54,558 bases of DNA from Candidatus Aenigmatarchaeota archaeon (GTDB lineage Archaea; Aenigmatarchaeota; Aenigmatarchaeia; Aenigmatarchaeales; DAIDAN01). The DNA lies in assembly GCA_049303335.1 (NCBI GenBank), contig JBAQNA010000004.1:1-54558 (forward strand), read 5' to 3'. Positions 867 to 51,329 of this stretch are shown one piece after another (the first letter of the stretch is position 1; every line of letters begins with the position of its first letter). Made by a program: the position numbers and the translations under genes. A model generated the notes under the pieces. It did not search any database. It saw only the letters and a list, made by a program, of their open reading frames with translations, and had not been told where the DNA came from.

Positions 867-3800
867 TTACAACTTCTGTATCACATTGTGCTTCGGCTCG
901 AACAGCATGCCCTCGCTCTTCATCTTCTGAATCATATCGTCAACGCCTTTCAGGCCGTGGTCCTCCGCCTCTGCGATTATGTCCTCCTTCGGAATCTGCT
1001 TGCCGATCCTTTTTTCGAGCGCCTCGATGACGTCAAGCAATATCCTTATCTTGCTCCTCTGCGAGGACGAGGTCCCCTCGGTGCGGTCAACGTCAATCTT
1101 GCCGGTCTCGTAATCGTAGCCGAACTGCTGCAGCGAGACTTTCATTATCCTTATCGCGCGCTCCGCGTCCTGCATCTCGGCTACCGGGCTGAGCCTGACT
1201 TTCGCGGAAGCTTCCGTCATTCTCAACAGCGCCTCGTTCTGCCTTAACGTTATCGCCACGGTATCCTCGCCCTTGTACATTCCCCTCATCGTGACGTAGA
1301 AATTCTTTATCCTCTCGAGCGCCTCCTTTGTCATTTTCGGATGGCAGTTCTGCCTCATGTACGCTATGAACTTCCTCAGGAAATCCTGCGAAATTTCCGG
1401 CTTTCTTATTTCCGGGTTGAGCCTGCTCTCGAGAATGTGCGAAGCTATCTTCTCGTCATTGTCCTTGTCCGGGACGTCGCGCAGCGCAAACTTCAAATCG
1501 AACCTGCTTAACAAAGTGTCGGGTATGTCGGTCTGCTCCATAAGCGGGCGGTAAACGTCGAACCTCGAGAACTTCGGGTTCGCGCCTGCGAGCACGGAAA
1601 CCTGCGCCGGCAAAGTTGCGATTATCGAAGCCTTCGCTATCGAGATGGTCTGCTGCTCGAGCGCCTCGTGCATCGCAATCTGGTCGTCCTTTCCCATCTT
1701 GTCAAACTCGTCTATGGCTATCACGCCCTTGTGACAGAGCACCATCGCGCCCGCCTCAAGAACCCAGCCGCCCATCAACTCCTCGTCGCGAAAAACTGTT
1801 GCAGTCAAGCCCGCTCCGGTATTGTGGCATAAAATACCGCCAAAACCGCTCACAAAGTTTTCCCCTTCCACCGAAAAATCATAAACATAATTCACATCAG
1901 GCTTTTCTTTCAATATTGATTTTATTCTGGCAAATCCCATATCGCTTTCGCAAAGCCTCTTGAACTGCTCATATTCTTTTAGAATATTTCTTCCCTCGTC
2001 GGAAAGCGATACAAACCAGCCATTTCCCGTTCTCTCGGTTTTGAAGAGTTGCTTCTTTGAAGTCATGTATGGGCTTATTTTATCTCCGAACTTCTTCTTC
2101 ATTTCCTTTGTTTGTATTTTATTATTCCCTAAAAACATAAGCCTTTCAAGAAGCATCTTGTTGCTGAGCCTTCCAAGATTTGCGCGCGAATACTTGCTGT
2201 TTATTATTTTTTTGAAGAAATATTTCCTCAAAAGCGGCGGGCATGCTTCTATCGGCACCTTTCTGTAAAGGTTTGAAAATGCTTTGTCAGGATGCGGCGA
2301 TTTCAAATCATATCTCTTTCCTGATGCAGTTATGATTCTGCCTTCTATCCTTCTGATGCCGCTATCTTCCCTTTTGTTGCAAGAGCCTATAACGCCGTCT
2401 CCAAGAAGGAGGTATAAGAATCCCGACATTAGGCCTTTTGACTTTGTCACTCCCTTGTCTCCTTTCATATAAGCGTCTGCAAAAGCTTTCCTGCAGCTCT
2501 CGGAAGAATTGAATATAATATTCGGAATTGTCTTTTCCTTAGCCTTTTTGCCGAAGGCATTTCCAAGAAGATCCTTAAATTTCAAGAAAGGTTCCTTCCC
2601 GTTTATCGTTATTCTTACTGCGTTCTTGCCATGAATGATATAGGAAGCATCTTTTCCAAAAACTTTTCTGGATATTGTCTTGATATCTTGTATTATTTCC
2701 GTTTCATTTTTTCCGAGAGTAAATTCTATTTTATAATAATCTTTTCCATAATGCAAATGCCCTTCAGCTATAAAGTAACCCAACAATCTTGCTGTATCAT
2801 CCCCTATATCTATTGGATTTTCAACAGGCATTATCGCGGGCACAATTGCGAAATCTCCCTCTTTCAAGAGCGATGCCTTTTTGCATGTTATTTTTCCATT
2901 CTCCAATGTAAAGATGCTGTGGTCGTCCGTAACAGTTATTTCCCTTCCCGTATCAAGCTCGAATTTTATCAAGTCATTTTCAATTTTGTGCCTGTAAAAG
3001 CTTTTTATCGGCTTCCATTCGAACTTTAGCGTGGAAAGATTCAGCGATAATGCCTCTATCTTTCTGTCCGGAGGAGAGAATCCATCTTCGCCTTTCTTGT
3101 AAAATTTGTCTGCGAATTCGCCAAACGGGACCATTTTTATTTCATGGCTATTTCTTATTATGACGGGCTCGTCAGCCTTTACAGAAGCGCCTTTCCCGCT
3201 TACATATCTTCCTCTCGGAATAAGTTGCGAAACCATTTTGAGCAATTGCGATTTCGCAACAGCAGGGTCTCCCAAAAGAAGAATATGAATGTCTCCCCTG
3301 ACCCTTGTGCCGTCAAGAAGCTTTTGCTGGACTCCGCCCATCATCTGCAGAAGTATCGCCTCTTTCACTTCTGCCATTCCGTAAATCGAGGGCGCGATTG
3401 AACCGACAATCCTGTTGTAAACGTTCGGGTCCGCAGCCAGCGCCTTTATCGCCTCCACGTCCTTGTTGCTTATGTCCACTTCATCCCATTCTATCTCCGC
3501 GGGCTCCACGTGGTTCGCCTCGACGAAAATGTCGGACTGGACTTTTCTTGCGCCGCCCTTCGTCTTGAGCGTCATCTCTTTTATGATTCCCGTGACCTTT
3601 ATCCTGTTTCCCGGGTCGCACTTCCTCTGCAGCTCCGGAGCCGTGAGGTCTTCCCTCAAATATACGGAAACCTGCCCCGGCTTTTCACCGGACGTAACTT
3701 CGAAAGGCTCCTCGATGACAACCCATCTCGCGTCGAAAAGCTTCTTGTCAATCATCTTGAAGCCGCGCTTGCTCCCGCACATGTCGCATCCGGACGGGTA

Positions 3801-4238
3801 GCGCAGCAATTCTTCAGTCTGCTTCACGGAAATCTTGTTCCCGCACTCGCACTCGAATTCCGCTACGTCGATTTTCGGCTTTACCTCACCGGCTCGCTTA
3901 ACGATGCCGTCAACGCACACAAACTTCCCAATGTGCTCGCTCCGCAGCGAGCGGATTCTTATCATCTGGTGATCCGGAAGATTTTTGAACCTCACGCGAA
4001 AGCTCGCCGCGCCCTCAATCTCCGGAAGCACGATCGCGTCGGAAGCCGCCTTCTCTATCTCGGGCAGCATCGACTCCGGGTCGTTCAAAAGTTTTTCCGC
4101 TATCAGCCTGCAATGGCTGTCAAAAGCGTCAAAATCAACGGTTATGGACTTCTTTCCCAGTTTCGCGGCCGCAAGAATTTCCTTCTCGTAAAACTCCCGG
4201 AAGAACTCCTCGATTTTTTCGCTGTCCATAGAAACCAA
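867..4238 (-). CDS. mcm: MCM replicative helicase, interrupted by an intein
   Basis: N-terminal Zn motif CECGN...CDMCG. Walker A GDPAVAKS. The extein junction GKGA|...|TGAGLTATV restores the conserved MCM GKG-x-x-AGLTA segment. Walker B IDEFDKM and arginine finger SRFDL are present. Confidence 0.95.
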   Translation of the reverse strand: MVSMDSEKIEEFFREFYEKEILAAAKLGKKSITVDFDAFDSHCRLIAEKLLNDPESMLPEIEKAASDAIVLPEIEGAASFRVRFKNLPDHQMIRIRSLRSEHIGKFVCVDGIVKRAGEVKPKIDVAEFECECGNKISVKQTEELLRYPSGCDMCGSKRGFKMIDKKLFDARWVVIEEPFEVTSGEKPGQVSVYLREDLTAPELQRKCDPGNRIKVTGIIKEMTLKTKGGARKVQSDIFVEANHVEPAEIEWDEVDISNKDVEAIKALAADPNVYNRIVGSIAPSIYGMAEVKEAILLQMMGGVQQKLLDGTRVRGDIHILLLGDPAVAKSQLLKMVSQLIPRGRYVSGKGASVKADEPVIIRNSHEIKMVPFGEFADKFYKKGEDGFSPPDRKIEALSLNLSTLKFEWKPIKSFYRHKIENDLIKFELDTGREITVTDDHSIFTLENGKITCKKASLLKEGDFAIVPAIMPVENPIDIGDDTARLLGYFIAEGHLHYGKDYYKIEFTLGKNETEIIQDIKTISRKVFGKDASYIIHGKNAVRITINGKEPFLKFKDLLGNAFGKKAKEKTIPNIIFNSSESCRKAFADAYMKGDKGVTKSKGLMSGFLYLLLGDGVIGSCNKREDSGIRRIEGRIITASGKRYDLKSPHPDKAFSNLYRKVPIEACPPLLRKYFFKKIINSKYSRANLGRLSNKMLLERLMFLGNNKIQTKEMKKKFGDKISPYMTSKKQLFKTERTGNGWFVSLSDEGRNILKEYEQFKRLCESDMGFARIKSILKEKPDVNYVYDFSVEGENFVSGFGGILCHNTGAGLTATVFRDEELMGGWVLEAGAMVLCHKGVIAIDEFDKMGKDDQIAMHEALEQQTISIAKASIIATLPAQVSVLAGANPKFSRFDVYRPLMEQTDIPDTLLSRFDLKFALRDVPDKDNDEKIASHILESRLNPEIRKPEISQDFLRKFIAYMRQNCHPKMTKEALERIKNFYVTMRGMYKGEDTVAITLRQNEALLRMTEASAKVRLSPVAEMQDAERAIRIMKVSLQQFGYDYETGKIDVDRTEGTSSSQRSKIRILLDVIEALEKRIGKQIPKEDIIAEAEDHGLKGVDDMIQKMKSEGMLFEPKHNVIQKL
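1821..3185 (-). other. Intein (455 aa) with LAGLIDADG homing-endonuclease domain inside mcm
   Basis: Starts with Ser (SVKADEPVII, codon at 3183-3185). Block B is TVTDDHS. LAGLIDADG-like motifs are LLGYFIAEGHL and FADAYMKGDKG. Block F/G is VYDFSVEGENFVSGFGGILCHN, followed by +1 Thr (codon 1818-1820). Lengths 351+455+317 = 1123 aa. Confidence 0.85.
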
Positions 4239-6215: not shown

Positions 6216-6914
6216 ATGGAAGAGCAAACAAAAGATCCAGAAACAGACAATATCAGGATAAAAGACATTCCCTTGTCGGAAAGACCAAGAGAAAGGCTAA
6301 CGCAGCTTGGTGCCGAGGCTCTCAGTGCACCGGAACTTCTGGCTATCATTCTGAGAACAGGCACAGAAAAAGAGAATGTTATAGAGCTGGCTAACAGGGT
6401 GCTGAAAGAACATGGTTTGAAAACGCTATCCCAAGCAAGCGTGGAAGAATTAAAGAAGATATTCGGGATTGGTGAAGCAAAAGCCTGCCAGATTGTTGCA
6501 TGCTTTGAATTGAATAAGCGTTTGAGCTCTTATCAAGATTCAAAACAGTATATCAAAACCTCCGAAGATGTTGCAAAGCTTTTCATGGAAAGATTCAAAG
6601 ACCTCAAGAAAGAATATTTCAGCATAATCAACCTTACTTCAAAGAACAAAATGATAAACCATCAGACTATTTCCATCGGTGATTTGAACGAGAGCCTTGC
6701 GCATCCCCGCGAAATATTCCACTCGGCAATAAAAAGCTCAGCCTCCCGCGTTATTCTTATCCATAACCATCCTTCCGGCGACCCTTCCCCATCGGAAGCA
6801 GACTTGCAATTAACAGAAAGACTTATGGAAGCAGGCGAGCTTTTGGGAATAACGGTTCTCGATCACGTGATTATCGGCAACGGCAAATGGTGGAGCTGGC
6901 GCGAAAAGAAATGA
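6216..6914 (+). CDS. radC: RadC-like JAB/MPN domain protein (UPF0758)
   Basis: N-terminal LSERPRERL...ELLAIILRTG (HhH part) and the JAMM motif HNHPSGDPSPSEAD. Confidence 0.9.
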   Translation: MEEQTKDPETDNIRIKDIPLSERPRERLTQLGAEALSAPELLAIILRTGTEKENVIELANRVLKEHGLKTLSQASVEELKKIFGIGEAKACQIVACFELNKRLSSYQDSKQYIKTSEDVAKLFMERFKDLKKEYFSIINLTSKNKMINHQTISIGDLNESLAHPREIFHSAIKSSASRVILIHNHPSGDPSPSEADLQLTERLMEAGELLGITVLDHVIIGNGKWWSWREKK

Positions 6915-9900
6915 TTAATTTTCACTCAAATCCTTGCACAATACCTTTGCCTGCTCCAATACGGTTTCAGTTGCTTTTTTCTGCTTGTCCGGTGGATAAC
7001 CGTATTTTCTCAATATTCTTCTTACCATTATCCTCATTTTTGCCTGAACACTTTCCTTTATCGTCCAATCAATGGTCGCGTTTTCATGTATGGTTTTCAC
7101 AAGCTCTTTGGCAATTTTCCTTAAAGCTTCATCCCCTAAAATCTTGACTGCGCTGTCATTTATTTCGAGCGCATCATAAAAGGCGATTTCCTCTTCTGAT
7201 AGGTTTAACTTCTCCCCTCTTTTTTCTTCTTCGCGCATACTATTTGCCAGTTCTATCAGCTCTTCCAAGACCTGCGCGGCTTCTATGTTTCTGTTGGTAT
7301 ACTCCCTGATTGTCTTTTCCAATTTTTCCATGAAAGATTTTCCCTGAATTATGTTTTTCTTAATCTTTATTTTTATTTCATCATTGAGGAGTTTCTTGAG
7401 CATCTCGAAAGCAAGGTTTTTCTGCGGCATTTCCTTTACTTCTTTCAAGAATTCTTCCGAGAGCAGGGAAAGATTAGGTTTCCTGAGCCCGGCTGCCGAG
7501 AATATGTCAACTACCCTGTCAGATACTATTGCTTTGGATAAAATCTGTTTTATTGCAGAATCCAAATCCTCGCGCTCTTTCTCCCCTGCAGTTAAAGTAT
7601 TTTTTGCGATAGCGGACCTTACTGCTTGGAAGAAACCAACATCATCTTTTATCTTCAATGCCTCTTCATGCGGGACCGCAAGCGCGAAAGCCTTTGATAG
7701 TTCAGATACGCGCTTCAGATACCTCTCCTTTCCATCTTTCTGTTTCAGGATATATTCCATGGCTTGCGGAATGATTGCCATCCTTTCTTTTGGCTTCTCT
7801 TTAAAGAATCTTTTATAATCAAAGCCGTGGAAAATTTCAGTTACTATTTCATATTTCTCCTGCATCAGCGCGACAGCTTCCTCTTGCGGAATGCCTGTTT
7901 CTTTCTTGTCAGCTTTCGTGTATTCGGAAAGCGCCTTTTCCAGTTCGTAGCCGATGCCAATGTAATCAACTACCAACCCTCCGGGCTTGTCCTTGAATAC
8001 CCTGTTAACCCTTGCGATTGCTTGCATCAATCCGTGGCTTCTCATCGGCTTGTCAATATACATTGTGTGCAGGCAGGGAGCATCAAATCCCGTGAGCCAC
8101 ATATCTCTGACAATAACCAGCTTAAGAGGGTCGTTCTCGTCTTTCAATCTGTCTCCAATATCTCTCCTTCTTGCTTTGTTTCTTATGTGTTCCTGCCAAT
8201 TTACCGGGTCTGTTGCCGAACCAGTCATGATGACTTTGATAATTCCTTTGTCATCATCCTTGTTATGCCAATCAGGCTTTAATTTTATTATCTCGTTATA
8301 AAGTTCAACGCAAATTCTCCTGCTCATGCAGACAATCATTCCTTTTCCTTCAAGTGTTTCAGTTCGCTTTTCAAAATGCTGGACAATATCATTCGCTATC
8401 CTTCTTATTCTTCCCTCGCTTCCGACAACCTTTTCCAGCCTCGCCCATTTGCTCTTTAGTTTTTCCTTGCTTTTGGATTCTTCCCCTTCAGTTACGTCTT
8501 CAAATTCCTTGTCGATTTTTGGCCTTTCTTCCGGTTTCAGCTCAAGCTTTGCCAATCTGCTTTCATAGTAAATCCTTACGGTTACATTATCTTCCACAGC
8601 CTGCTCGATATCATAGACATCAACATATTTTCCAAATACCGCAGGAGTGCTTCTGTCAGCTTTTTCTATTGGCGTTCCTGTAAAGCCGATGAATGAGGCG
8701 TTTGGCAAAGCATCCCTCATGTGCCTTGCAAAGCCGTCTATGAAATCATACTGGCTTCTGTGCGCCTCATCCGCTATCACTACGATATTTTTTCTTTCAG
8801 AAAGCAAAGGATACTTTTCCCCTTTTTCTTCCGGCAGGAATTTCTGGATTGTTGTAAATATTACCCCTCCGGATGCAACCTTTAGAAGATTTTTCAATTC
8901 GCTTCTTGCAGTTGCCTGCACTGGTTTTTGCCTTAACAATTCATGGCATTTGCTGAACGTATCAAACAGCTGGTCATCCAAATCATTCCTGTCCGTTAGA
9001 ACCACAATAGTCGGGTTGTCAAGTTCCAGAACAATCTTTCCCGTGTAGAAAGCCATTGTAAGGCTTTTTCCCGAGCCTTGCGTATGCCAGACAACTCCCG
9101 CTCGTTTGTCTGATTTTGTGGCTTTGATTGTTGACTGGACCGTGTTGTTTACCGCGTTGTATTGATGGTATGCGGCTATCTTCTTTATCAGTTCCTTGTC
9201 CTGTTCGAAAACAACAAAGTGCCTTGCCAAGTCCAGCAGAGTCTCTTTTGCAAACATGCCCCTTATGATAACTTCCAGCTGTGTCATATTTTTTGCAGGC
9301 TTTTTTCCATTGATTGTTTTCCAAGGCGTGAACCTTTCCCATTTCGAGGAGATTGTTCCCGCCCTTGCTTCCGTTCCATCGCTTATAACCAAAATCTCAT
9401 TATAATTGAACAAGGAAGGTATCTGGAGCTTGTAGGTTTCAAACTGGTTGAATGCTGTTTTTATTGTTGCGCTCTCGTCAGCAGGATTCTTCAATTCTAT
9501 TACTGCCAAAGGCAGTCCATTGATAAAAAGAATTATATCGGGCCTTCTGTTAATCCTGTTTTCTTCAATAGTGAACTGGTTTATTGCAAGAAACTCGTTG
9601 TTTTTCGGATTATCAAAATCAAAAAGCTTTACCGCATCATTCTTTATGCTTCCGTCCTTTCTTTTGTATTCAACATCAACCCCGCTAACAAGCATTTTGT
9701 GAAAGTTATGATTGTTAACAACAAGCTTCTGGCTTTCTATCCTCATAACTTTCTTGACAGCTTCCTCCCTTCCCTCTTTCGGCATATCAGGATTCAGCTT
9801 ATCAATGGCATCTTTCAATCTCTCAACCAAAACAACATCAGAATAGCTATCCCTCTCGGGATTCTTCCCATCAGGCGCGGGCGCAATATCAGGCCCGTAA

Positions 9901-9977
9901 ATTATCTTGTATCCGAGCTCTGTCAGAATATCCAACGCCACCTGTTCAACCTGCGACTCTGTTATTATGTGGGGCAT
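6915..9977 (-). CDS. hsdR: type I restriction enzyme R subunit (HsdR)
   Basis: 1020 aa. Helicase motif [11 protein letters not shown] and motif II (DEAH) ADEAHRSQ. Typical HsdR N-terminal nuclease region ([18 protein letters not shown]). Confidence 0.95.
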
Positions 9978-9978
9978 A

Positions 9979-10950
9979 CTAATTGCCTATTAGTTCTTTA
10001 AAAGAATTTTCAATTTTTTTGTAAAGCATTTCATAAGTTATTATATTTAGATTGTGATATGCATGTCTTTCTAGATTGAGTTTATCTTGAACTATTTCGT
10101 TTTTAAGTTCATCATCAGATCCTATGATTACAACCAATTTAGAATTATAGATATGGTTTTTTAGATTGTGTTCTTTCTTATCATCACAATGATCAATTAG
10201 CCATTTCTTATAAACAAGAATCTGTTCTATAGCCTTAGTTAAAGTAGATGTTTTAACGAAGCTTTTTAACTGATCATAATATTTATTTTTTGTATTTATT
10301 TTTCCAGAAAATAATTTTGCTCTTGGACTCTTCAATTCCCATAATTCATATTCACCATACTCATTCAGAATTAAGAAGTCAAGTCTGTTTTGTGAACCAG
10401 CTTTAAATTCGTTATGATAATCTAAATATGGTAAAAGTCCTTTTTCTTTGATATATTTGTGTATTATTCTTTCCTTTTCTTTATTGCTTATTTTCTTCTT
10501 TAATTCTCCTAATGTTAGTTTTATCTCTTCTTTCCTCTTTTCTAATTTTGATTTAATTTCTACAAACTGAGGTTGTCTAAACAATTGAGGTTGTCTAAAC
10601 TTATCTGCAATCTCATCTACTTTTGATTTTAGCCTAGAATAATTAATCATATAATTATTGCCAAGAACTACAGAGTGAAAAGAATATCCTATTGGTGTTG
10701 AAAAACCTAACATGCCAGAAAAGCCTCCTCCACTGAGCACACCTTCTGATTCTAGTTCTTTTAATATTTTGCTTATTTCTGATTCTGTAAGCTTATCAAG
10801 AAAAGTTTTATTTTTATTTAGTTCATTCAATATTTCTTGCGTACTTATTACTTCATTAATTTTGAAATGATTCTCTTCAAGTTTGTTAAGCAAAATAGCT
10901 AATATTTTCAATAAAAGTTCTTTCTGCTTATCTTCAGGATAGTATATCAT
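9979..10950 (-). CDS. Shedu-like (DUF4263-type) PD-(D/E)xK nuclease-domain protein embedded between hsdS and hsdR
   Basis: C-terminal half has [22 protein letters not shown] (D...ExK), [24 protein letters not shown] and [10 protein letters not shown]. These follow the same order as in the ORF at 13045-14031. It is strongly AT-rich. It overlaps hsdS by 4 nt and ends 1 nt before the hsdR start. Confidence 0.6.
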
Positions 10951-12212
10951 ACTCTTACCTCTCCAGACATCAGTTTCGGAAGGAGCGCATCACGTATTTT
11001 TGATAAATTACTATTCTGTATCAAATTATTATAAGTTTTGTCTATAATACTCTTGATAATTTTGTTAAATTCATTTAGAGTTTCATCTAAAGGCAAAACA
11101 AATTTCATATTTTTTAAAGTCTCTTGATTAACACTCTGCAATGTTGTTCCAACTGCAAAATTTGATAAATTTTCTTTTAGTCTTTGTATAATTAGAAAGA
11201 AATACAAATAATTATCGGTATTATTTAGCCTGTAACGAATACTAAATCCAGAATAAATTACTTTATCTAAATTTCCAAGAACCAGAGAAGTCTCACCAGG
11301 ACTTGCACTTCTCGCAATTAAGATATCTTTATCATTCAATAAATAATCTTCTGCTTTCTTTAAGTTAATCTTTATTCTACTTAAAGAACCCTTTAAGAGA
11401 AGTTTATTATTTGCAATATCTCGAACATTTGCAATAAAAAACTCAGTATCGCCGTTTTCATCTCTCAAATAATTTATTCCATTTTTGAACGTGCCATAAT
11501 CACCCAGCGTTCCAACCATCCACCCCTTCGGCACCTCCCCAAGCTCCGTCTCCACCATCTCCCCGCCGTTCGACCTGTACGGCTTGCCCTTCCCATTCGG
11601 GAACTCAAAATCAACGAACCAATGCTTGAAAAGTGCCTGCCCGATGGCTTCAAAGGTGGAGTTCATGGCGCGGTTGAGGGCGATTTTGTCGTCCAAAGAG
11701 TTGAGAATGGAGGCGATGGCGCGCTGTTCTTGTATTGGAGGAATATTTACTTCATAACTCATAATTGCATTTTTGTCGCCTCTTGGCATTTTGGTGCCTT
11801 TTGAAGTTAAAACAGTAAATTCAAAGAATCGATCTTGAGAAAGAAAATAATAGAGATATTTATTATTTAATGATGATTTGGTTCTGATAACTAATACATC
11901 ATTTGAGCACCCGCCTTCAAATTTAGATAGCCATAATTTTTTGAAATAAGTTCGAATATTCGAAAACAAAATATCTCCTTCTTTGAAGCATGATACTTTT
12001 CCCGTTTGAGGTAATGATGAAGCGATAGTAATACCGCCTTTATCGGGGAGCATATTTTCAGTAGAAATAAAGTTGTTTAAATTGACTTCATCAATATTTA
12101 TCTTTTCAGAAATGTATGAAGCAACATCTCTAAGTTTTACAACTTCCCAATCTTCAGGAATCTTTCCTATTTCAGTTTGCTTGAATTTATTGCTTTTTAT
12201 CATAATAATCAT
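10947..12212 (-). CDS. hsdS: type I restriction-modification specificity subunit (HsdS)
   Basis: Two TRDs are each preceded by a P(E/K)xW motif (IPEDWEVVKL, VPKGWMVGTL). Central conserved region is PPIQEQRAIASILNSLDDKIALN. The C-terminal conserved helix ends LLPKLMSGEV. Confidence 0.9.
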   Translation of the reverse strand: MIIMIKSNKFKQTEIGKIPEDWEVVKLRDVASYISEKINIDEVNLNNFISTENMLPDKGGITIASSLPQTGKVSCFKEGDILFSNIRTYFKKLWLSKFEGGCSNDVLVIRTKSSLNNKYLYYFLSQDRFFEFTVLTSKGTKMPRGDKNAIMSYEVNIPPIQEQRAIASILNSLDDKIALNRAMNSTFEAIGQALFKHWFVDFEFPNGKGKPYRSNGGEMVETELGEVPKGWMVGTLGDYGTFKNGINYLRDENGDTEFFIANVRDIANNKLLLKGSLSRIKINLKKAEDYLLNDKDILIARSASPGETSLVLGNLDKVIYSGFSIRYRLNNTDNYLYFFLIIQRLKENLSNFAVGTTLQSVNQETLKNMKFVLPLDETLNEFNKIIKSIIDKTYNNLIQNSNLSKIRDALLPKLMSGEVRV

Positions 12213-13020
12213 TCAAAGATTTTTTCTTTACTTCTTCATAAGATAAGATTCTTATTTTTTCTATTCTGTCAAGTTTAATATACACTTTGGCTTGTACTTT
12301 AACTCTTTTTCCCAGAAGTTCCTTTATGTCTTCTAAACTAAAATTAAGAATTGCTGGAGCAGAAGTGTTTATTGTTTCAATATGAAACCTAAACTTGTTA
12401 GTATCAATATTTACTGCGGATAAATAGCCTATCAATTCTTGGTCAAGCTCTTCTATTTCTATTTTGTCTTCTTCTTCCTGTATCCGTTTATCTATCTTAT
12501 CTTTATCCTCGAAGCTGATTCTCAATAATTCTTTCTCATCATATAGAAATTTTGCAATGTCTCCTTCTTGTCTTAACGGTTTATGAATATACTTTATTTT
12601 TCTGTGGGCAAGTTTCTTAACAAGCTCTGTGATTATCTCTCCTTGTTTTTCTATTTTCTTAATGAGATTTTCTTCAGTTTTTTTAGATTGAAAGTAGCTA
12701 ATAAAAAACAAAATAAACGTTATTAGATAGCTTCTAAACTCTTCATTTGTAAAAATAATAGATATATATTGCTCAAAACTACCTTTTTTCACAGAAACAT
12801 AAATATCTTGTATATTGTCACTATTGTAAGCAGTTATTCTTCTTTTTGCCAATTCATTAATCACAGTTCTTATCAAGGAATCTATTGCCTCTAATTCATC
12901 GGCTAAGTCGTTAATTTCTATTTTTCCTTCAAAAGAAGGCCCTTCATAAACTATCTTTAATTGTTCTTCTCTGGTCACTTCTTTACCATATAAATTTTTA
13001 TCATGCAACATTTTAATCAT
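12187..13020 (-). CDS. hypothetical protein with one hydrophobic helix and a charged coiled-coil region, embedded in the type I R-M operon
   Basis: 277-aa AT-rich ORF. Hydrophobic segment is YLITFILFFISYF. An acidic or Lys-rich segment is DKIDKRIQEEEDKIEIEELDQE. Its 3' end overlaps the hsdS start by 26 nt. No family recognised. Confidence 0.5.
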   Translation of the reverse strand: MIKMLHDKNLYGKEVTREEQLKIVYEGPSFEGKIEINDLADELEAIDSLIRTVINELAKRRITAYNSDNIQDIYVSVKKGSFEQYISIIFTNEEFRSYLITFILFFISYFQSKKTEENLIKKIEKQGEIITELVKKLAHRKIKYIHKPLRQEGDIAKFLYDEKELLRISFEDKDKIDKRIQEEEDKIEIEELDQELIGYLSAVNIDTNKFRFHIETINTSAPAILNFSLEDIKELLGKRVKVQAKVYIKLDRIEKIRILSYEEVKKKSLNDYYDKKQ

Positions 13021-13044
13021 CTAAATATTGATTAATCTTTTGTT

Positions 13045-14031
13045 CTAAACAACTTTCTTTTCCTCAATATGCTTAAGCAATGCTTCCGACTTATCCAAAA
13101 TATCTTTATATGTGTAGATTTGTATGTGAGAAAATTGATAATTCCATTTATGCAACTTTTTCTTGGCTTCAGGAGAGTTATCTTTGCCAATAATAACAAT
13201 CCCTCTTGGTCTTAACTCTTTAATTCCTTCTTCTTCAGATATTGTAGTGCTATGTGCAGCTCCAATAGATTTTTCTATATAATCGATTAACTGATCAACT
13301 GCCTGTATGACTTTTGCACTTACAGATCCATCTTGATTTATAATCTTATCTGAAAGCAGCTTAATTTCTACAATATCATTTGTTTTATTAAATCTCTCTA
13401 AATAGAAGTCAAATCTGTTTTTAGCGCCTCTCATCTTTTGTGGTTCAGAACTTATGTATTCCGTTCCAAACATCCATGAATTCCTATACAAAAAATCTTG
13501 GAGTTCACTTTCTAATATTTTTCTTTTTTCTACATCTTCTATTTTGTTTTTCAACTCTTGTATGGCTTGACAGAATTCAGAAGAACGATTAATAATCTCC
13601 TTTTCTTCTTGTTCTTTATATCTTTTCAATAAAGTCTCATAGTCAGTTCTTGCTTCTTTATTTGCAGTTTGTAGATTTGAAATCATCTCTTGTTGTCCTC
13701 TTATAGCTTCCTTTAGATTCTTGAAGTCGATTTCAATATCTTTAAATTTCCAACCTAGTTTTTTTGCTATTTTTCTCAATGCAAAAGTCAATTTATCTAA
13801 GTGAAAAGAATCAAATAAGTCGAAACCGGAATTTCTTCGCCAACCATACGGCCTTTTAGATTCCGATATTGCTCTAATAAACTTCTGATTATTAGTTTTA
13901 TTCTTAACACCAAAAACCTTCCCAAGTCTTTTCCCGTCTGAATAAACTTCTTCAGAATCTAATTCTTTATAATATTTCGGATTGAGTAAAGGTTTTCTTT
14001 CATCCTTGTTTATTTCCTTCTTTTCAACCAT
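13045..14031 (-). CDS. Shedu-like (DUF4263 / SduA-type) nuclease-domain protein embedded between hsdM and hsdS
   Basis: Contains LQDFLYRNSWMFGTEY, NRFDFYLERFNKTNDIVEIKLL (D...ExK), QAVDQLIDY, RGIVIIGKD and IQIYTYKDIL. This is the characteristic order of the Shedu nuclease domain. The N-terminal ~180 aa is basic with a coiled-coil. It starts 9 nt after the hsdM stop. Confidence 0.7.
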   Translation of the reverse strand: MVEKKEINKDERKPLLNPKYYKELDSEEVYSDGKRLGKVFGVKNKTNNQKFIRAISESKRPYGWRRNSGFDLFDSFHLDKLTFALRKIAKKLGWKFKDIEIDFKNLKEAIRGQQEMISNLQTANKEARTDYETLLKRYKEQEEKEIINRSSEFCQAIQELKNKIEDVEKRKILESELQDFLYRNSWMFGTEYISSEPQKMRGAKNRFDFYLERFNKTNDIVEIKLLSDKIINQDGSVSAKVIQAVDQLIDYIEKSIGAAHSTTISEEEGIKELRPRGIVIIGKDNSPEAKKKLHKWNYQFSHIQIYTYKDILDKSEALLKHIEEKKVV

Positions 14032-14040
14032 AATAACACC

Positions 14041-15573
14041 TCATATCCCTTTCAGATTCTTTTTTATCTGCACTTCGAGCTCTGCGGATTTTTTGAATTG
14101 TTCCGCAAGTTCATTAGTAAGTTTTTTCATTTTCTCGTCAAACGGCTCGCTATCTTCTGCGGCTTCTTCTGCGCCGACATAGCGGCCAGGGGTAAGGATA
14201 AAACCCTGTTTTATTATCTCCTCCAGCTTCACAACTTTGCAGAATCCCGGAACATCCTTGTATTTGCCGCCTTCGCCGCGCCAAGCGTGGTAAGCGGAAG
14301 ATATCTTTCCAACCTCTTCGTCCGTGAGCTCCCTGTGCCTTCTGTCCACAAGAACTCCCATCTTGCGCGCATCAATAAAGAGAACTTCTCCTCTTCTATC
14401 CCTGAACTTGTGATTCTTCTTATCTCGGGCAACAAACCATAGGCAAGCTGGAATCATTGTGTTGTAAAACAGCTGTGAAGGCAGCGCAACCATGCAATCA
14501 ATCAAATCAGCATCGATAATTTTCTTCCTAATCTCGCCCTCGCCTGAAGTGTTGGAACTCATGGAACCGTTAGCCAAAACAAAACCGGCAATACCGACAG
14601 GAGAAAGATGATGAATGAAATGCTGGACCCAAGCAAAATTAGCGTTTCCGGCAGGAGGAACCCCGAACTTCCATCTTACATCCTCGCGCAAAAGCTCGCC
14701 TTTCCAGTCGCTATCATTGAAGGGAGGATTCGCAAGAATAAAGTCCGCTTTCAAATCCTTGTGCTCGTCATTCAGGAAACTGCCCTCATTATTCCACTTA
14801 ACCATATTGGATTCAATCCCGCGAATAGCAAGATTCATTTTGCAAAGCCTCCATGTTGTCTGGTTTGATTCCTGCCCGTAGATGGAAATGCTTCCAATCC
14901 TTCCACCATGCGCCTGAACGAATTTTTCGCTCTGCACGAACATCCCGCCGGAACCGCAGCAGGGGTCAAAAACCCTTCCCTTGTATGGTTCAAGCATCTC
15001 AGTAAGAACCTTTACGATAGAACGCGGCGTATAAAACTGCCCGCCGCTTTTGCCCTCGGCATCCGCAAACCTGCCGATGAAATATTCATAAACCCTTCCA
15101 AGAATATCCTTTGATTTGCTTTCATAATCCCCGAGGCTGATTGTTCCAATAAGGTCAATCAACTCTCCAAGCCTTTGCTTGTCAAGCGCGGGACGCGCAT
15201 AATTCTTTGGAAGAACCCCTTTCAGAGAAGCATTATCCTTCTCGATTGCATCCATTGCATCGTCAATAAGCTTGCCTATAATTGATTGTTTAGCATTCTT
15301 TTGGAGATAGCTCCATCGCGCGGCTTTCGGAACATAGAAAACATTCTCAGCCAGATATTCATCAGGCTCTTCCGGCTCCGCGGCCGGTTCCTTGACAAGA
15401 AATTTATGTCTCTCCTCGAAAGCGTCTGAAATGTATTTTAGAAAAATCAGTCCAAGGACAACATGCTTGTACTCGGCGGCATCCATATTATTTCTCATCT
15501 TGTCCGCCGCCTGCCAGAGTTTTTGCTCAAACCCGAGATTCGCCCCGTTTCCGTTAGCTTCGTGCTTTTGCAT
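14041..15573 (-). CDS. hsdM: type I restriction-modification N6-adenine DNA methyltransferase subunit (HsdM)
   Basis: [13 protein letters not shown] motif [10 protein letters not shown] and catalytic motif IV ANPPFN. N-terminal HsdM_N-like helix ([10 protein letters not shown]). Confidence 0.95.
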
Positions 15574-15594: not shown

Positions 15595-15603
15595 TTTATA
15601 AAA
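15595..15603. promoter_or_regulatory. single near-palindromic TATA element (tttataaaa), apparently shared by divergent genes
   Basis: The centre (15599) lies 26 nt from the hsdM ATG (15573, minus strand) and 26 nt from the ATG at 15625 (plus strand). Confidence 0.5.
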
Positions 15604-15624: not shown

Positions 15625-15918
15625 ATGTTAGAACAAGAGTTAACGATGGACTGCCCTTTCTGCGAGAAGGCAAAGATTAAGGTCAGGCACAAGCCTTCTG
15701 TAATATCAACGAAAACAACACGCACCGCAACTATGGGTGCGGTTCGCGGCTATCATCAATCAAAAGAGGTTTATGAAGTTCTGGATGACTGCTCGAACTG
15801 TGGAAAGACGAAAGAAGAAATAAAGAAACGATTGATAGAAGGAAAGCCTATGGATAGAGAAGCTGTGCTGAAGCGAATGCGAGATATGGGCTTAGACCCT
15901 GCCAAAATTAGATTATAA
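15625..15918 (+). CDS. small zinc-ribbon protein, function unknown
   Basis: CPFC...CSNC pairs in a 97-aa ORF. The stop codon lies inside the IS target-site duplication. Confidence 0.5.
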   Translation: MLEQELTMDCPFCEKAKIKVRHKPSVISTKTTRTATMGAVRGYHQSKEVYEVLDDCSNCGKTKEEIKKRLIEGKPMDREAVLKRMRDMGLDPAKIRL

Positions 15919-16750
15919 CAGCTTTGTAGAAACCCTCGACAACAATCACCAAACTTCTGTCAATGTTGTGAACAAAGCACATCAATCTTATTTCCTTGAA
16001 CTGGTTCCACCAGTTCTTTGAAGAAACATAATCCGCATATTTTCTTTTCAGCATTGAATTGACAGTCTCGCTGAACGCTCTTTTGTTGTATTCATCTTTG
16101 TCAAGCCTTGCATTATTGGCTTTGTCAATATTCTTGAATTCCCTATGAGGAATCAACGGTCTTATTCCTCTGTCTCTGAGAATATCCCTGACTTTCCTGT
16201 CGTCATAACCTTTGTCAGCTCTCAATGAATCAATGTCATATTTCTCTGTCAACGGAAGTATTATCTTGGAATCATGTTTCCTTGTTGTTGTGGCATGCAC
16301 ATCAACAATCCTGAGATTTTCCACATTGACAAGCAATGTGACCTTCAGCGAGCGCAATGTCATCTTTGCGCGCTTTACATAGTGTTTTGAGGCATATCTC
16401 CTGTCAAAGCCCGTCGCGTCAATGGAGCAGTCCTTTGCTTCCCCTGCGCTAAGGTATAGCAATATCATGAAAATAGAATTTCTCATCCTGAGAAATGCCT
16501 TGTCCAGCGTTGTGAAATGCGGAAGCTTTTCTAATCCCAATAACTTGCATATCTCGGTCATTTCAGAAAGCAAATCACAAAAATCCCTGAACTTCTGCTT
16601 TGTCCTTACCTTGAGGCAAAGCATTGCGCAATGCTGGTGCAGTGTGAAATCCTTCCTTGAGAACTTGCTTGAATATTCAGGCATCGATTTCTTTGCTATT
16701 CCAAGAACGGCAGAAGTAAACTTTTTAAGTCTGGACTCGGAATTCATCAT
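15908..16750 (-). CDS. DDE transposase (IS4/IS5 superfamily)
   Basis: 280 aa. ADKGYDD motif typical of IS5-type DDE transposases. The ORF reads through the left IR and stops 12 nt outside the element. Confidence 0.8.
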   Translation of the reverse strand: MMNSESRLKKFTSAVLGIAKKSMPEYSSKFSRKDFTLHQHCAMLCLKVRTKQKFRDFCDLLSEMTEICKLLGLEKLPHFTTLDKAFLRMRNSIFMILLYLSAGEAKDCSIDATGFDRRYASKHYVKRAKMTLRSLKVTLLVNVENLRIVDVHATTTRKHDSKIILPLTEKYDIDSLRADKGYDDRKVRDILRDRGIRPLIPHREFKNIDKANNARLDKDEYNKRAFSETVNSMLKRKYADYVSSKNWWNQFKEIRLMCFVHNIDRSLVIVVEGFYKAVII

Positions 16751-17222: not shown

Positions 17223-18560
17223 ATGGAAAAAGAAACATACGATTTTGACCTCTTTGCGCTTCATGATGAAAGCAGAGATAATACTTCCAGAAAGTTCATC
17301 ATGTGCACAGGAAAGAATGTGAAATCAGAACTCAGAAAACACATAACAAAAATAGTCGGCAACGGAATATCCAGATACAAGCTGCATCTTATGCTGCAAA
17401 AGAAACTAAAAATCTCATCTGCAAACGCGCAAAGGCTTGTTTATTTGAGAAGAGATTGGTATCCGTTGGTTTTCGTTAAAGAAATATTGAATATGGCAAG
17501 TGCATCTGAAAAAGAATTTCAAGAGCATATAGAATTCTTGAAGTGCAATCAGCCTCCAGTAAGGGTTGTCAAGGCTGTAAAGAAATTATCAGAAAACTTA
17601 TGCAAAGTAGCTGGCGCTCATGCGGCAGATGGAACAATGCTTGATTCGTATATATGCATCACAGACGAGCATAAAGCTAATATAGAATCATTTAAAAATT
17701 GGATAGAGAACGAGTTTCAAATAAAACTGTCTCCTGTTATAAAAGTAAAGAATAGTAACGAGTGGAAATTACCTTTCCACAATAAAATAATAACAAGGTA
17801 TTTTAACAGATTTTTCGGTTTTCCTTCCGGAAAAAAGGTATACGCAGTCAAAGAGCCTGAAATAATAAAGAACAGTACTCTAAATTTCAGAAAAGCTTTT
17901 GTATTGGGGGCTTTGACATTTGAAGCAGGTGTAGGAATAAAACATCAAGTTGAGTTTTGCGTATCCAGCAAAGCATTCAGAGATTCCATGACTGAAATAC
18001 TGAACCTATCTGGCGTAAAGATAAAAGTTATGGACAGAATTAGCGGTACTTACTGGAGATTTTGGAGCAATAGTTTAACAAAAGAAGATGCTGAGAAATG
18101 GCTACAATTCTTCGAGCCATATACGGAAAAATGGTTTAAGTTATACGAATATGTAAATGGGTTTCAAGGAAAGATAACGCAAACAAATGACGCCATAAAA
18201 TCATTAGATTATGTTTTTGGAACAAAATCTTCCAGCAAAGTATGCATCAAGGACATCATAAACATTTTATTGAATCTAAAGGAGTCATACAGATATGATT
18301 TGGTTGAACGCCTCGCAAAATTAAATAGTCTGGACAGCTATGGCGGAAAATGGGCGCATTCTATATCTCATTACATAAATATCTTGGAAAGGAGCAACAT
18401 AATAAGAAAAGAGAAAAGAAGGTTTGATAAAAAGAAATCATTCGGAACCATTGTCCGAGATGTTTACATCTTGAATGAAGATATAGAATCTTGGAGAGTG
18501 CCATATAGGTCATGTTTGGAAAGCGAAATAAAATACAGCAATCTACAAGAAATCAAATAG
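17223..18560 (+). CDS. free-standing LAGLIDADG-like (double-motif) protein with N- and C-terminal helical/HTH-like regions
   Basis: Two LAGLIDADG-like motifs about 100 aa apart: LCKVAGAHAADGTM and RKAFVLGALTFEAGVG. The spacing and surrounding pattern (ITRYFNRFFGFPSGKK...) resemble homing-endonuclease folds. Confidence 0.45.
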   Translation: MEKETYDFDLFALHDESRDNTSRKFIMCTGKNVKSELRKHITKIVGNGISRYKLHLMLQKKLKISSANAQRLVYLRRDWYPLVFVKEILNMASASEKEFQEHIEFLKCNQPPVRVVKAVKKLSENLCKVAGAHAADGTMLDSYICITDEHKANIESFKNWIENEFQIKLSPVIKVKNSNEWKLPFHNKIITRYFNRFFGFPSGKKVYAVKEPEIIKNSTLNFRKAFVLGALTFEAGVGIKHQVEFCVSSKAFRDSMTEILNLSGVKIKVMDRISGTYWRFWSNSLTKEDAEKWLQFFEPYTEKWFKLYEYVNGFQGKITQTNDAIKSLDYVFGTKSSSKVCIKDIINILLNLKESYRYDLVERLAKLNSLDSYGGKWAHSISHYINILERSNIIRKEKRRFDKKKSFGTIVRDVYILNEDIESWRVPYRSCLESEIKYSNLQEIK

Positions 18561-34057: not shown

Positions 34058-34807
34058 TTATTGTTGTGGTTTTAATATTTTTCTTAATTCATATAAGTTC
34101 TTAAATAGTTTTGATATATATTTAACTTCAATACGTAGAAATTCTCTGAGACCATCTAATTTCTTTCCAGAATTAGCTAAAGTTTTAGCGAAGTTTGAAC
34201 GTCCTCTAAGTTCTTCTCTCACTAAAATTATATGTTTCAAAATTTCAGGCGGAATGTTATGTGGATAATCGACTAATAATTTATTAATTTCTTTATAAAA
34301 ATCGTCTAGAACGTTACTGAATATTCTAAATTTTTCATGATTCCATGTTTTTATACTTTCTAGAAAAACGCTTTCTGATTCTTCACTCAATTCTTTTAGT
34401 ACTTTTTCATATTTACCTAAAGATTCATTAAAGAAGTTTGGGTTAAAATATTCAATTCCGAGTCTTTTTATTTTAGGTTGTTGATTAAATTTAATTTCAA
34501 TATTTAAAATTTCAATTAATTCTTCGATAAATACGTATATCTTTGAAAAAAGAAAATTATACACATATGTGTTTATAGTCATCCACCTTTCATTATCTCT
34601 TATAATTAAGATTTTTTGGACAACCAATATAGTGAAAATACTTCCGAAAGATTGTATTATTAATCCAGCGATTAATGTTTCGGTTTTAATATATCCCAAA
34701 TAATTAGCTAAAAAGAAAAATATAAAGGATAATAGTAGAACGCAAAAAATTAACGTATAAAAACCAAAATGTATTTGATTTATCTTCTTCATTATGCTGT
34801 TTATCAT
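34058..34807 (-). CDS. hypothetical membrane protein (2-3 N-terminal TM helices + helical soluble domain), AT-rich ORFan
   Basis: Start is moved to the ATG at 34807 (MINSIMKK...). The track start 34882 would overlap the pheT 3' end in GC-rich sequence. Confidence 0.45.
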   Translation of the reverse strand: MINSIMKKINQIHFGFYTLIFCVLLLSFIFFFLANYLGYIKTETLIAGLIIQSFGSIFTILVVQKILIIRDNERWMTINTYVYNFLFSKIYVFIEELIEILNIEIKFNQQPKIKRLGIEYFNPNFFNESLGKYEKVLKELSEESESVFLESIKTWNHEKFRIFSNVLDDFYKEINKLLVDYPHNIPPEILKHIILVREELRGRSNFAKTLANSGKKLDGLREFLRIEVKYISKLFKNLYELRKILKPQQ

Positions 34808-34808
34808 A

Positions 34809-36497
34809 TCATTCTCTCTTTTTATTGTATTTCCCGACCAGCCAGTCAATCCCGCACTCGAAGCCGGCGGCGGGCATCTCAAGCTTGAAGTTCGCCAGCA
34901 CCTGCGGGTGGATTTCGCCCATTATCCCGATTTGCTTTCCGTCTGCAAGGACCGCGGCGCACCTGCCGCTGATGAAAGAATTGTGCTTCGCCTCCCTGAA
35001 CGAGACCTTCTCGCCGATGCTTGAGAACAGCGCCTCAATCAGCGATTTCATTTCCGTGAACTCCGCGCGGCCGTGGCACGAAACGATGGAAAGGCTGTTC
35101 CTCTCAACGGGCTCGCCTTTTTCCTCGTCGTAAATCTCGCCCATCTCAAACAGCTTTTGCGGATACTCGTTGTGCGTGTTCTCGGACAGCGTCTTGAGAA
35201 GCATTGGCAAAAGCGAGTTCCTCACGATGTCATACTCTATATTTACGGCATTGATGGTTTTCACAAAATTCTTGTTCTTTAGAAGCATGTTGTCGTTCAG
35301 TATTCTTTCGTTCGAAAGGTGGAGCGTGCAGCACTCAAGCAGGCCGAGCCCGGAGCAAACTTCCGCAATCTTCCTGAAAACCAGGGACCTTGGCGCCTCC
35401 TCCCCTATAGTGCTCACGCGCGGAATCTCGTGTTTGAAATTCTCGTAGCCGTAGGCGATTGCAATGTCCTCGACAAGGTCGAACGGGTGCAGCACGTCAG
35501 TCCTGTATGCGGGAACCTCGACTTCTATCCTGTCTTTCTTGGCGACGGCGCCGTATCTCATCCTTTCCAAAAGCTTCGCGGCTTCCGCCGCCTTCAGGTT
35601 CAGGCCGAGAAGCTTGTTCGCATAATTGACATCAAGCTCCATCTTCGCGGTTTTCAGAATCGGGCAGACAACATTTTTGCCTTCCGGAGTTTCAAAAGGA
35701 TATTTTATTTTCGCCTCGTACAATTCCGCGCCGCGGCCGCTCCAGTTCGTGACAAGTATGTTCATTATTTGCTGGACTGCGCGCCAGTCGGTTCCGGTAA
35801 CTTCAATCATCACGTCCTTCGTCTTTTCCGTGACCTTCGTGAAGTCAGCCTGCGTTATCGGGATGACGCAAAGTATCTTCCCGTCAGCGTCCTTGTACGC
35901 GGGGAAATCTTTCCAGCCTTCTATCAGGTGCGAATACTCTTTCCCGCGTTTGTGCTCTTCCGCAAGTTCGCTTACCTTTATCTCCCTGTCATGCCCCATC
36001 GGGATGAACTTCTCGTTTTCGCCAACCATCGTGTAAGCCAGCGGGAATTTTATTTTGTCCAAATCGTAAACGCCCATCGCGACTTTCTTTCTTCTCCTTC
36101 CCTGCGTGGTCGCGAGCTTGTCCTGCAGCTGCATCGACGAGATTATGAATTCGTTGTCAAACTTCAAACCTTTCATCACGGCGATTCCGATATATTTCCT
36201 GTCAATCTTTGCGATTCTCGCGTCAACGGTCACGGCGTAATCCGATTTCTTGACCGCGAATTTTTCAAGCCCCGTCTTTACCCCGAGGAATCCGGAAATC
36301 GCGCGCGCGAACCCCTCTTCGGAAAGCATGTCGGGCCTGTTCGGGAATATCTCGACGTTTATCTTGTCCTCGGTTATACCCTCAAGAAAGAGCCCGTGCA
36401 TCGGCAGCCGCTCCGCAAGCTCGCTGTCGCCGAGTTTCTTCCCAATCATCTTCAGCACTGTTTCTTTGTCTAATGATACTGACGGCATAAAAATCAC
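34809..36497 (-). CDS. pheT: phenylalanyl-tRNA synthetase beta subunit (archaeal type)
   Basis: 562 aa with B3/B4 and B5 regions typical of archaeal PheT. It overlaps the upstream SDR gene by 4 nt. Confidence 0.9.
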   Translation of the reverse strand: MIFMPSVSLDKETVLKMIGKKLGDSELAERLPMHGLFLEGITEDKINVEIFPNRPDMLSEEGFARAISGFLGVKTGLEKFAVKKSDYAVTVDARIAKIDRKYIGIAVMKGLKFDNEFIISSMQLQDKLATTQGRRRKKVAMGVYDLDKIKFPLAYTMVGENEKFIPMGHDREIKVSELAEEHKRGKEYSHLIEGWKDFPAYKDADGKILCVIPITQADFTKVTEKTKDVMIEVTGTDWRAVQQIMNILVTNWSGRGAELYEAKIKYPFETPEGKNVVCPILKTAKMELDVNYANKLLGLNLKAAEAAKLLERMRYGAVAKKDRIEVEVPAYRTDVLHPFDLVEDIAIAYGYENFKHEIPRVSTIGEEAPRSLVFRKIAEVCSGLGLLECCTLHLSNERILNDNMLLKNKNFVKTINAVNIEYDIVRNSLLPMLLKTLSENTHNEYPQKLFEMGEIYDEEKGEPVERNSLSIVSCHGRAEFTEMKSLIEALFSSIGEKVSFREAKHNSFISGRCAAVLADGKQIGIMGEIHPQVLANFKLEMPAAGFECGIDWLVGKYNKKRE

Positions 36498-40596: not shown

Positions 40597-40608
40597 CAAT
40601 AAAAAAGT

Positions 40609-51317: not shown

Positions 51318-51329
51318 TATAAGATAAAT

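Follow-up and report, generated by a model that had tools for sequence, protein, structure and literature searches.

Defence genes nested in restriction-modification (R-M) operons are a known pattern that includes Shedu nucleases: of 5,499 Shedu genes, 602 are encoded in R-M systems, among them type I, and 87 in bacteriophage exclusion (BREX) systems (Gu et al., bioRxiv 10.1101/2023.08.10.552793; Mol Cell 2025), with archaeal Shedus accounting for 47 of 7,687 (Gu et al., bioRxiv 10.1101/2023.08.10.552793). In C. jejuni, rlo genes (R-linked open reading frames, e.g. RloF) are interspersed between the hsd genes on the same strand, and the TgvAB pair of the V. cholerae island VPI-2, embedded in a type I operon, protects without the R-M genes (bioRxiv 10.1101/2024.04.04.588119). 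PrrC, which joins an ABC-ATPase to an anticodon-nuclease domain and is encoded in type IC hsd loci, is physically held by its partner EcoprrI and senses the inhibition of that enzyme. In KELShedu, a DUF4263 nuclease has as its partner KELA, a 12.6-kDa WYL-like binder of double-stranded DNA encoded upstream (bioRxiv 10.1101/2025.09.13.674623). Here we describe one more example of the nested pattern, located in positions 1-54,558 of contig JBAQNA010000004.1 from a Candidatus Aenigmatarchaeota archaeon (GCA_049303335.1), a stretch of 54,558 nucleotides (nt) that we call the window. It holds a HindI-like type I operon in which the hsd genes are interleaved with three passengers: the open reading frames (ORFs) ORF328 and ORF323, predicted to encode Shedu nucleases, and ORF277, a member of a small uncharacterised family. 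We consider it probable, at about 0.72, that this operon serves, in an archaeal chromosome, as a carrier of or hotspot for defence genes that are independent and of horizontal origin.

The R-M-embedded Shedus of Gu et al. are single-gene Type 1 proteins (an N-terminal sensor followed by a DUF4263 core) within an R-M cluster, as ORF328 and ORF323 probably are too. What appears to set the window apart is that two Shedus of unrelated subfamilies occupy both junctions of one archaeal hsd operon. The rlo and TgvAB operons have bacterial hosts and carry GmrSD-like type IV cargo in place of Shedu, and the parts of that report considered here mention no compositional mosaic of hsdS. The likeness to PrrC and RloC is that a type I operon gains a second layer of defence from a gene lodged within it; however, the three passengers carry no ATPase or anticodon-nuclease domain detectable with Pfam or PADLOC, and, unlike PrrC and RloC, they have relatives that occur without hsd genes. 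KELShedu resembles the locus in placing a small partner next to a DUF4263 nuclease, a reminder that not every Shedu is a single-gene system, but ORF277 is a 277-amino-acid (aa) protein with a predicted OB fold, is encoded downstream, and stands beside an ORF328-type Shedu in only two contexts (the window and a second locus, L006).

The operon and its two Shedu nucleases

The six genes of the operon, in the order of transcription, are as follows.

14041-15573, minus strand: hsdM, 510 aa, N6-adenine methyltransferase subunit (Pfam N6_Mtase 1.4e-110, HsdM_N 4.3e-29; PADLOC MTase_I 3.5e-225)
13045-14031, minus strand: ORF328, predicted Shedu nuclease, after hsdM
12187-13020, minus strand: ORF277, small uncharacterised family, before hsdS
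10947-12212, minus strand: hsdS, 421 aa (Pfam Methylase_S 3.4e-31 in two stretches; PADLOC Specificity_I 3.3e-87)
9979-10950, minus strand: ORF323, second predicted Shedu nuclease, before hsdR
6915-9977, minus strand: hsdR, 1020 aa (Pfam HSDR_N 7.3e-53, SWI2_SNF2 9.5e-84, T1R_D3-like, T1RH-like_C 8.5e-133; PADLOC REase_I 1160 bits)

Judged by domain content, the hsdM-hsdS-hsdR backbone is a complete type I R-M system: HsdM combines N6_Mtase with HsdM_N, HsdS has two target-recognition domains and a conserved central region, and HsdR, the restriction and translocase subunit and the member of the HindI-like family, carries an N-terminal nuclease domain, a superfamily 2 translocase motor and a C-terminal assembly domain (Pfam). 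A preliminary description of this DNA had reported six minus-strand ORFs in this order, and its coordinates and spacings proved exact. From hsdM onward, the genes are separated by gaps of 9 and then 24 nt, the next two junctions are overlaps of 26 and 4 nt, and a last gap of 1 nt precedes hsdR; with the second ATG as the hsdS start, the overlap between ORF277 and hsdS shrinks from 26 to 17 nt. Because this spacing leaves no intergenic space for separate promoters, co-transcription is plausible, as is a single transcript with coupled translation. A candidate archaeal TATA box read directly from the sequence, TTTATAAA, lies at 15595-15602 on the minus strand, about 21-28 nt 5' of the hsdM ATG; if real, it would likely be the promoter of the operon, whose mRNA would then be leaderless or nearly so. 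Shine-Dalgarno-like motifs are present 5' of ORF328 (GAGGTG) and of ORF323 (GGAGAGGT).

Both candidate nucleases score above the Pfam gathering threshold of 27 bits for SduA_C/DUF4263 (ORF328, 48.9 bits over aa 174-311; ORF323, 54.0 bits over aa 158-310), the outcome that the preliminary description had anticipated for a profile search. The PADLOC models of SduA also match, at 1.3e-21 for ORF328 and 6e-11 for ORF323, both short of the stringent single-gene cut-off of 1e-25 used by PADLOC. The PD-(D/E)xK motifs assigned to the two proteins, with those of the B. cereus Shedu for reference, are listed below.

ORF328: motif I E174, motif II D208, motif III E222-x-K224, motif IV Q247
ORF323: motif I E160, motif II D191, motif III E205-x-K207, motif IV Q243
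B. cereus Shedu: motif I E204, motif II D249, motif III E264/K266, motif IV Q295

All four motifs are invariant within each subfamily (74 ORF328 and 7 ORF323 homologues). When the two subfamily profiles are compared with hhalign, the C-terminal halves alone align (E 2.2e-5), in a register that pairs E174 with E160, D208 with D191, E222xK224 with E205xK207 and Q247 with Q243. The common, ordered C-terminal motifs noted earlier are therefore in register by profile-profile comparison, and every peptide quoted for them is found in the translations. Motifs II-IV of ORF323 can further be aligned to the B. cereus SduA structure 8ti9, both with the single sequence and with the family profile (the latter at E 7.5e-4), motif I being assigned solely by the alignment between the two subfamilies. 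Unlike the C-terminal halves, the N-terminal halves fail to align in the profile-profile comparison, in keeping with the difference described previously, and BLASTP finds no significant similarity between ORF328 and ORF323. From these properties, ORF328 and ORF323 are predicted to be distinct nucleases of the Shedu (DUF4263) type, each with its catalytic motifs intact.

The unrelated N-terminal halves and the lack of pairwise similarity argue that the two genes are separate acquisitions. An origin of the pair by tandem duplication was considered and is ruled out by the non-significant pairwise comparison together with the unrelated N-terminal halves.

Some 150-170 residues precede the nuclease core in both proteins, where the Type 1 architecture has its N-terminal sensor domain. 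In ORF328 this region contains the invariant residues W64, G69 and W94 and is followed by a helical linker and then by the DUF4263 core; it has no Pfam match, and that of ORF323 has weak winged-helix-like matches only (EAP30 0.017, Cdc6_C 0.084). Against the sequences of the PDB, the ORF328 family profile found no match, and a single-sequence match to DnaA (E 0.048) was dismissed as spurious. The ORF328 homologues, all full length and 47-80% identical, come mostly from DPANN archaea, and some are named Shedu by NCBI. That the subfamilies are largely common to DPANN archaea points to a flow of defence genes from low-GC donors. Exact-sequence matches for ORF323 and ORF277 were confined to contigs shorter than 2 kb, which offer no gene context.

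In one protein of 377 aa (P0093), an ORF323-type Shedu core is joined to an NYN ribonuclease domain, which takes the place of the ORF323 N-terminus; by its sequence, P0093 illustrates the swapping of N-terminal domains in the ORF323 subfamily.

Passengers across the operon family and the hsdS mosaic

To place the window among its siblings, we scanned for relatives of its hsdR, taking one genome per species. The scan returned 80 loci, mostly from archaeal metagenome-assembled genomes, cyanobacteria and Pasteurellaceae, with hsdR 44-75% identical to that of the window, and the hsdM-hsdS-hsdR order and hsdS itself could be resolved in 58 of them. Counting as a passenger any same-strand ORF of at least 100 aa inside the operon, we found passengers at one or both junctions in 47 of these 58 operons, distributed as follows.

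Passengers at both junctions: 21/58
Passengers only between hsdS and hsdR: 20/58
Passengers only between hsdM and hsdS: 6/58
No passengers: 11/58

The commonest state of this operon family is thus to have one gene ahead of hsdS and a second ahead of hsdR. The preliminary description had implied that the layout of the window was novel; this cannot be upheld, since passengers at both junctions are the most frequent arrangement among the siblings and Shedus in R-M loci are already published. The passengers vary widely in identity and are of defence and toxin-antitoxin type; the 136 passengers match 103 Pfam families, including YhcG/DUF1016, FRG, PIN, Fic, AbiEii-type AAA_21, SLFN_AlbA_2, NTP_transf_2/HepT pairs, DUF4145, DUF4365 and Abi_C. 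SduA_C is outside the 25 most frequent of these families, and hidden Markov models of the ORF328, ORF323 and ORF277 families detected no member in the sibling operons. The preliminary description had named random, non-recurrent occurrence in hsd loci as evidence against its proposal, and for this particular combination the occurrence is largely of that kind.

Each of the three passengers is, moreover, found elsewhere without the other two. Relatives of ORF323 occur alone, outside hsd loci, beside metabolic genes or integrase fragments (two contexts, L107 and L109). Those of ORF328 are found directly after hsdM with other companions, namely a HEPN protein (L104) or a CD-NTase with Cap15 of a CBASS (a system for signalling against phages that is based on cyclic oligonucleotides; L105), and also outside hsd operons in ordinary defence islands (L110-L114). 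The varied sibling passengers and the separate occurrence of each window passenger fit a carrier or hotspot and not an obligate multi-component system. The earlier proposal of a composite, functionally coupled system accordingly finds no support in the heterogeneous sibling passengers or in the occurrence of each window passenger without the others.

Two further points concern the company kept by ORF328. In L105 (7980-9441; also in L106) a minimal CBASS pair, a CD-NTase_C protein and a Cap15 transmembrane effector, lies between the ORF328-type Shedu and hsdS, so that three defence systems share one type I operon. Separately, we considered an obligate two-gene Shedu formed by ORF328 and ORF277 in the manner of KELShedu and rejected it: the pair is present only in the window and L006, each gene has relatives without the other, and KELA is a different kind of protein.

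A more intimate arrangement, in which one or both Shedus and/or ORF277 would be wired to the type I enzyme, either firing when the R-M system is inhibited, as PrrC does with EcoprrI, or acting on DNA ends made by HsdR, strikes us as unlikely. Members of both Shedu subfamilies occur with no hsd genes nearby, the sibling operons carry unrelated passengers or none, and the PrrC precedent, which would favour such wiring, finds no PrrC- or RloC-like domain in the passengers to build on (Pfam, PADLOC). The junctions are of the translational-coupling type, and an ORF328-type Shedu directly follows hsdM in four distinct hsd operons (the window, L006, L104 and L105/106), both of which would suit a wired system; yet the TgvAB pair is independent of the type I operon that hosts it, and the foreign composition of the passengers described below indicates recent, separate acquisition. 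Gu et al. do propose that Shedu may complement R-M or BREX, and E. coli SduA is reported to sense free DNA ends, which type I cleavage would make (10.1101/2023.08.10.552762).

The carrier reading, which we prefer, is also consistent with base composition. The GC content at third codon positions (GC3) is host-like in hsdM (0.50) and hsdR (0.46) and falls to 0.26 in ORF328, 0.23 in ORF277 and 0.20 in ORF323, with the shifts in GC no more than about 200 nt away from the hsdM stop and the hsdR start. A sliding GC3 profile shows that hsdS itself is split, dividing the interior of the operon into the segments listed here.

11763-14031, minus strand: low-GC block A, comprising ORF328, ORF277 and the first hsdS target-recognition domain (GC 0.27-0.32, GC3 0.13-0.30)
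hsdS aa 1-150: GC3 0.13-0.30
11493-11762, minus strand: central conserved region of hsdS, aa ~151-240 (GC3 0.5-0.8)
hsdS aa 241-421: GC3 0.13-0.30
9979-11492, minus strand: low-GC block B, comprising the second target-recognition domain, the C-terminal part of hsdS and ORF323 (GC 0.23-0.33)

The passengers and both variable halves of hsdS therefore have a foreign composition. The centre of hsdS reaches a GC3 of 0.7-0.8, above that of hsdM and hsdR (~0.5), which suggests at least three sources for hsdS, and this central region is likely to be a recombination anchor. Since each low-GC block consists of one target-recognition domain and its adjoining passenger or passengers, we infer a joint swap by recombination, in which the passengers were probably exchanged as a package along with the hsdS specificity domains, composition being the sole basis of this inference.

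Foreign composition, together with the adjacent insertion sequence (IS) transposase and the fragmentation of hsdR in some sibling loci (L003), might also be expected of inert cargo, that is, decaying or selfish DNA or addiction modules that have no role in defence and are merely tolerated. We regard this as very improbable: by comparison with their families, none of the three ORFs is disrupted or truncated, their catalytic and signature residues are invariant, the junction geometry keeps the downstream hsdS and hsdR translated, and both Shedu domains match families whose activity against phages has been shown by experiment.

ORF277, a recurrent companion of restriction-modification genes

ORF277 itself has no Pfam or PADLOC match at E<=1. 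A profile run exhaustively against 1.84 billion representative proteins recovered 83 relatives, nearly all of 260-290 aa, where a word-indexed search had given three. A 4-sequence alignment gave an unusable AlphaFold2 model (predicted local distance difference test, pLDDT, 56.8); the model built from a 48-sequence alignment has a pLDDT of 89.9, rising to 94-98 over aa 190-260, and a predicted template modelling (TM) score of 0.79. The modelled protein consists of an N-terminal alpha/beta domain bearing the family signature Y-x-GPSF, a helix at aa 93-111, several short helices and a C-terminal barrel at aa ~190-263. In Foldseek searches of the PDB only the barrel finds matches, all of them OB folds (IF1, RPA, Stn1/CST and the mitochondrial single-stranded-DNA-binding protein Rim1; probability 0.99-1.0, target TM score 0.5-0.6, E 2e-3 to 5e-2), and as modelled the C-terminal domain is a five-stranded closed OB barrel. 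Among the predicted viral structures of BFVD, three uncharacterised phage proteins match ORF277 over its full length (E 6e-11 to 4e-9); scans of viral contigs with two alignments of the ORF277 family found no relatives.

The preliminary description had called ORF277 a transmembrane, coiled-coil protein. Of this, the hydrophobic helix stands and the coiled coil does not, the AlphaFold2 model showing short helices and the OB barrel. The most hydrophobic 19-residue segment falls at one and the same alignment position (reference aa 85-115) in 45 of 48 members, its sequence not being conserved, and its mean Kyte-Doolittle hydropathy ranges from 1.2 to 2.3 in the family, against a value of at least 1.6 taken to indicate a membrane helix. 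In terms of position and hydropathy, the segment behaves like a membrane helix across the family. That of ORF277 itself scores 1.11 and has a short core of 14 residues, SYLITFILFFISYF. Placement in the membrane calls for caution, because an N-terminal domain of about 90 aa precedes the helix with no signal peptide.

The family appears to be distantly related to PADLOC PDC-S42, matched by 10 of the 48 aligned relatives (best 8.1e-9), and to Pfam DUF7946, matched by three of the 48 (best 4.7e-5). ORF277 resembles these families in size and single-gene nature but itself matches neither model. Literature searches for the names 'DUF7946' and 'PDC-S42' found no publication, and the embedding in R-M operons of several types is an observation made here on ORF277 relatives, not one taken from the literature on either family.

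That embedding is a new lead: the closer relatives of ORF277 sit in R-M operons of types I, IIG, III and II. In a small sample of contexts, drawn from one pattern scan with a 4-sequence alignment seeded with hsd-embedded sequences, they lie within or next to R-M genes in 15 of 17 distinct contexts, sharing the strand of these genes and usually overlapping the gene beside them.

Type I (at least three hsd families), upstream of hsdS in every case: window, L003, L005, L006, L087/88, L089, L092, L093, L094
Type IIG, immediately following enzymes that resemble MmeI/Eco57I: L090, L091
Type III, flanked by mod and res: L097/98, L101
Type II, following a pair made up of an NgoPII endonuclease and a C5 methyltransferase: L096
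Lone methyltransferase, with an IS in between: L099

In L005 (hsdM-277-hsdS-hsdR) the ORF277 relative is the only passenger and there is no Shedu, and NYN or PIN neighbours accompany the relatives in L003, L089 and L094. A more distant member of the family occupies a neighbourhood that is not of the R-M kind (L115).

Some of these neighbours form patterns of their own. An NYN protein is the passenger after hsdM in L003. In L089 (7418-9811) and L094 (7415-9811) the ORF277 relative has a PIN_12 protein on its downstream side and, upstream, a protein of about 190 aa that is conserved but unannotated; the three genes overlap, and this trio may be a variant three-gene module.

Our reading is that ORF277 is a third module that acts on its own and has a strong tendency to be carried in R-M operons. 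The alternative is that ORF277 is an accessory or guardian of R-M systems, a membrane-associated OB-fold protein that depends on an R-M partner of any type and, for example, senses restriction products or anti-restriction proteins and responds with membrane damage, the Shedus being ordinary passengers. The 15 of 17 contexts within or beside four R-M types, the constant position upstream of hsdS in type I loci, the retention of the hydrophobic helix in 45 of 48 members and the OB fold all speak for a role of this sort. We nonetheless hold it to be clearly improbable: direct binding can hardly explain one partner for structurally unrelated R-M enzymes, the distant member in L115 has a neighbourhood devoid of R-M genes, the related PDC-S42 is entered in PADLOC as a candidate consisting of a single gene, and the contexts are few and come from one scan seeded with hsd-embedded sequences. 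R-M operons are, in addition, general hotspots for unrelated genes, so the association may reflect carriage only. In its most general form, the idea would make the ORF277 clade an undescribed accessory of R-M systems at large, a small, translationally coupled, membrane-associated OB-fold protein that senses the product or the failure of restriction (single-stranded DNA, DNA fragments or an anti-restriction protein) and triggers a membrane-based abortive response; we mention this as a speculative proposal that is unlikely to be correct.

Proposed assembly of the locus, and its surroundings

The window belongs to an archaeal chromosome, as its flanks carry genes for MCM with an intein, archaeal Nre, QueC and a DAC-domain protein. 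The features adjacent to the operon and the MCM gene are as follows.

6216-6914, plus strand: RadC-like JAB gene (Pfam RadC 1.3e-43, and UPF0758_N), converging on hsdR and outside the operon
15625-16750, immediately upstream of the operon: an ORF of 97 aa, divergent, that has two CxxC pairs and lacks a Pfam match, and an IS transposase gene (DDE_Tnp_1, 280 aa, minus strand), with an 11-nt overlap
867-4238, minus strand: MCM helicase gene with an intein (Intein_splicing 1.7e-20) that includes a LAGLIDADG homing-endonuclease region

As reported earlier, the RadC-like gene abuts the end of hsdR: the two genes are convergent and their stop codons touch (TGA/TTA). A convergent RadC gene downstream of hsdR is also present in L003, L016, L019, L020, L025, L094, L104 and L105, mostly archaeal loci; some loci have a YgjP-like gene between hsdR and RadC, and L104 has two RadC copies. 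The RadC-like gene may be a marker of an integration site or part of the mobile island.

Elsewhere in the window, the low-GC stretch near 2-3 kb is due to the intein in the MCM gene. Further low-GC islands (~30-35%) at 34058-34882, 44958-45944 and 17223-18560 encode proteins with no or weak Pfam matches, one of which, of 328 aa, has a sub-threshold match to the EVE domain (E 3.4e-4); these islands may be further cargo, foreign or defensive. At 40579-40631 and 51300-51352, 10.7 kb apart, stand the two copies (74% identical) of a 53-nt direct repeat, which begins with TTTAAATCC...ATGAG and looks like a promoter or 5' region common to two genes.

Taken as a carrier, the operon could work as follows. 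All six genes would be read from one promoter upstream of hsdM, the passengers borrowing the expression of the operon, and the downstream genes would be translated by coupling or reinitiation. Each Shedu would act alone, like published Shedus, as a tetrameric nuclease inhibited by its N-terminal sensor and freed by an infection cue such as free DNA ends, and two differing sensor domains would broaden the range of cues. ORF277 would be a third autonomous module whose OB domain senses nucleic acid or a phage protein and whose hydrophobic helix anchors or inserts in the membrane. Homologous recombination would have brought in the passengers along with the neighbouring target-recognition domains of hsdS, using as anchors the conserved 3' end of hsdM, the central region of hsdS and the 5' end of hsdR. 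The outcome would be a layered defence that arises from co-location and co-expression, not from one enzyme complex.

Several points weigh against this account. The recombination model is based on composition alone, and internal archaeal promoters could be hidden in the AT-rich passengers. The slot of the ORF328-type Shedu directly after hsdM, kept in four operons of at least two hsdM/hsdR families, is more regular than expected of a random passenger. Likewise, the R-M habit of the closer relatives of ORF277 could mean functional dependence and not hitch-hiking.

The locus leaves the general understanding of such systems unchanged. It documents Shedu nucleases, which are rare in archaea, in an archaeal chromosome, and it brings forward the ORF277 family, with some 80 clusters, a confident structural model and close relatives that favour varied R-M operons, as a cheap and well-defined experimental candidate. 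The three-part mosaic of hsdS suggests a concrete and testable route of cargo exchange; if the package swap is true, a single recombination event would alter restriction specificity and accessory defence together.

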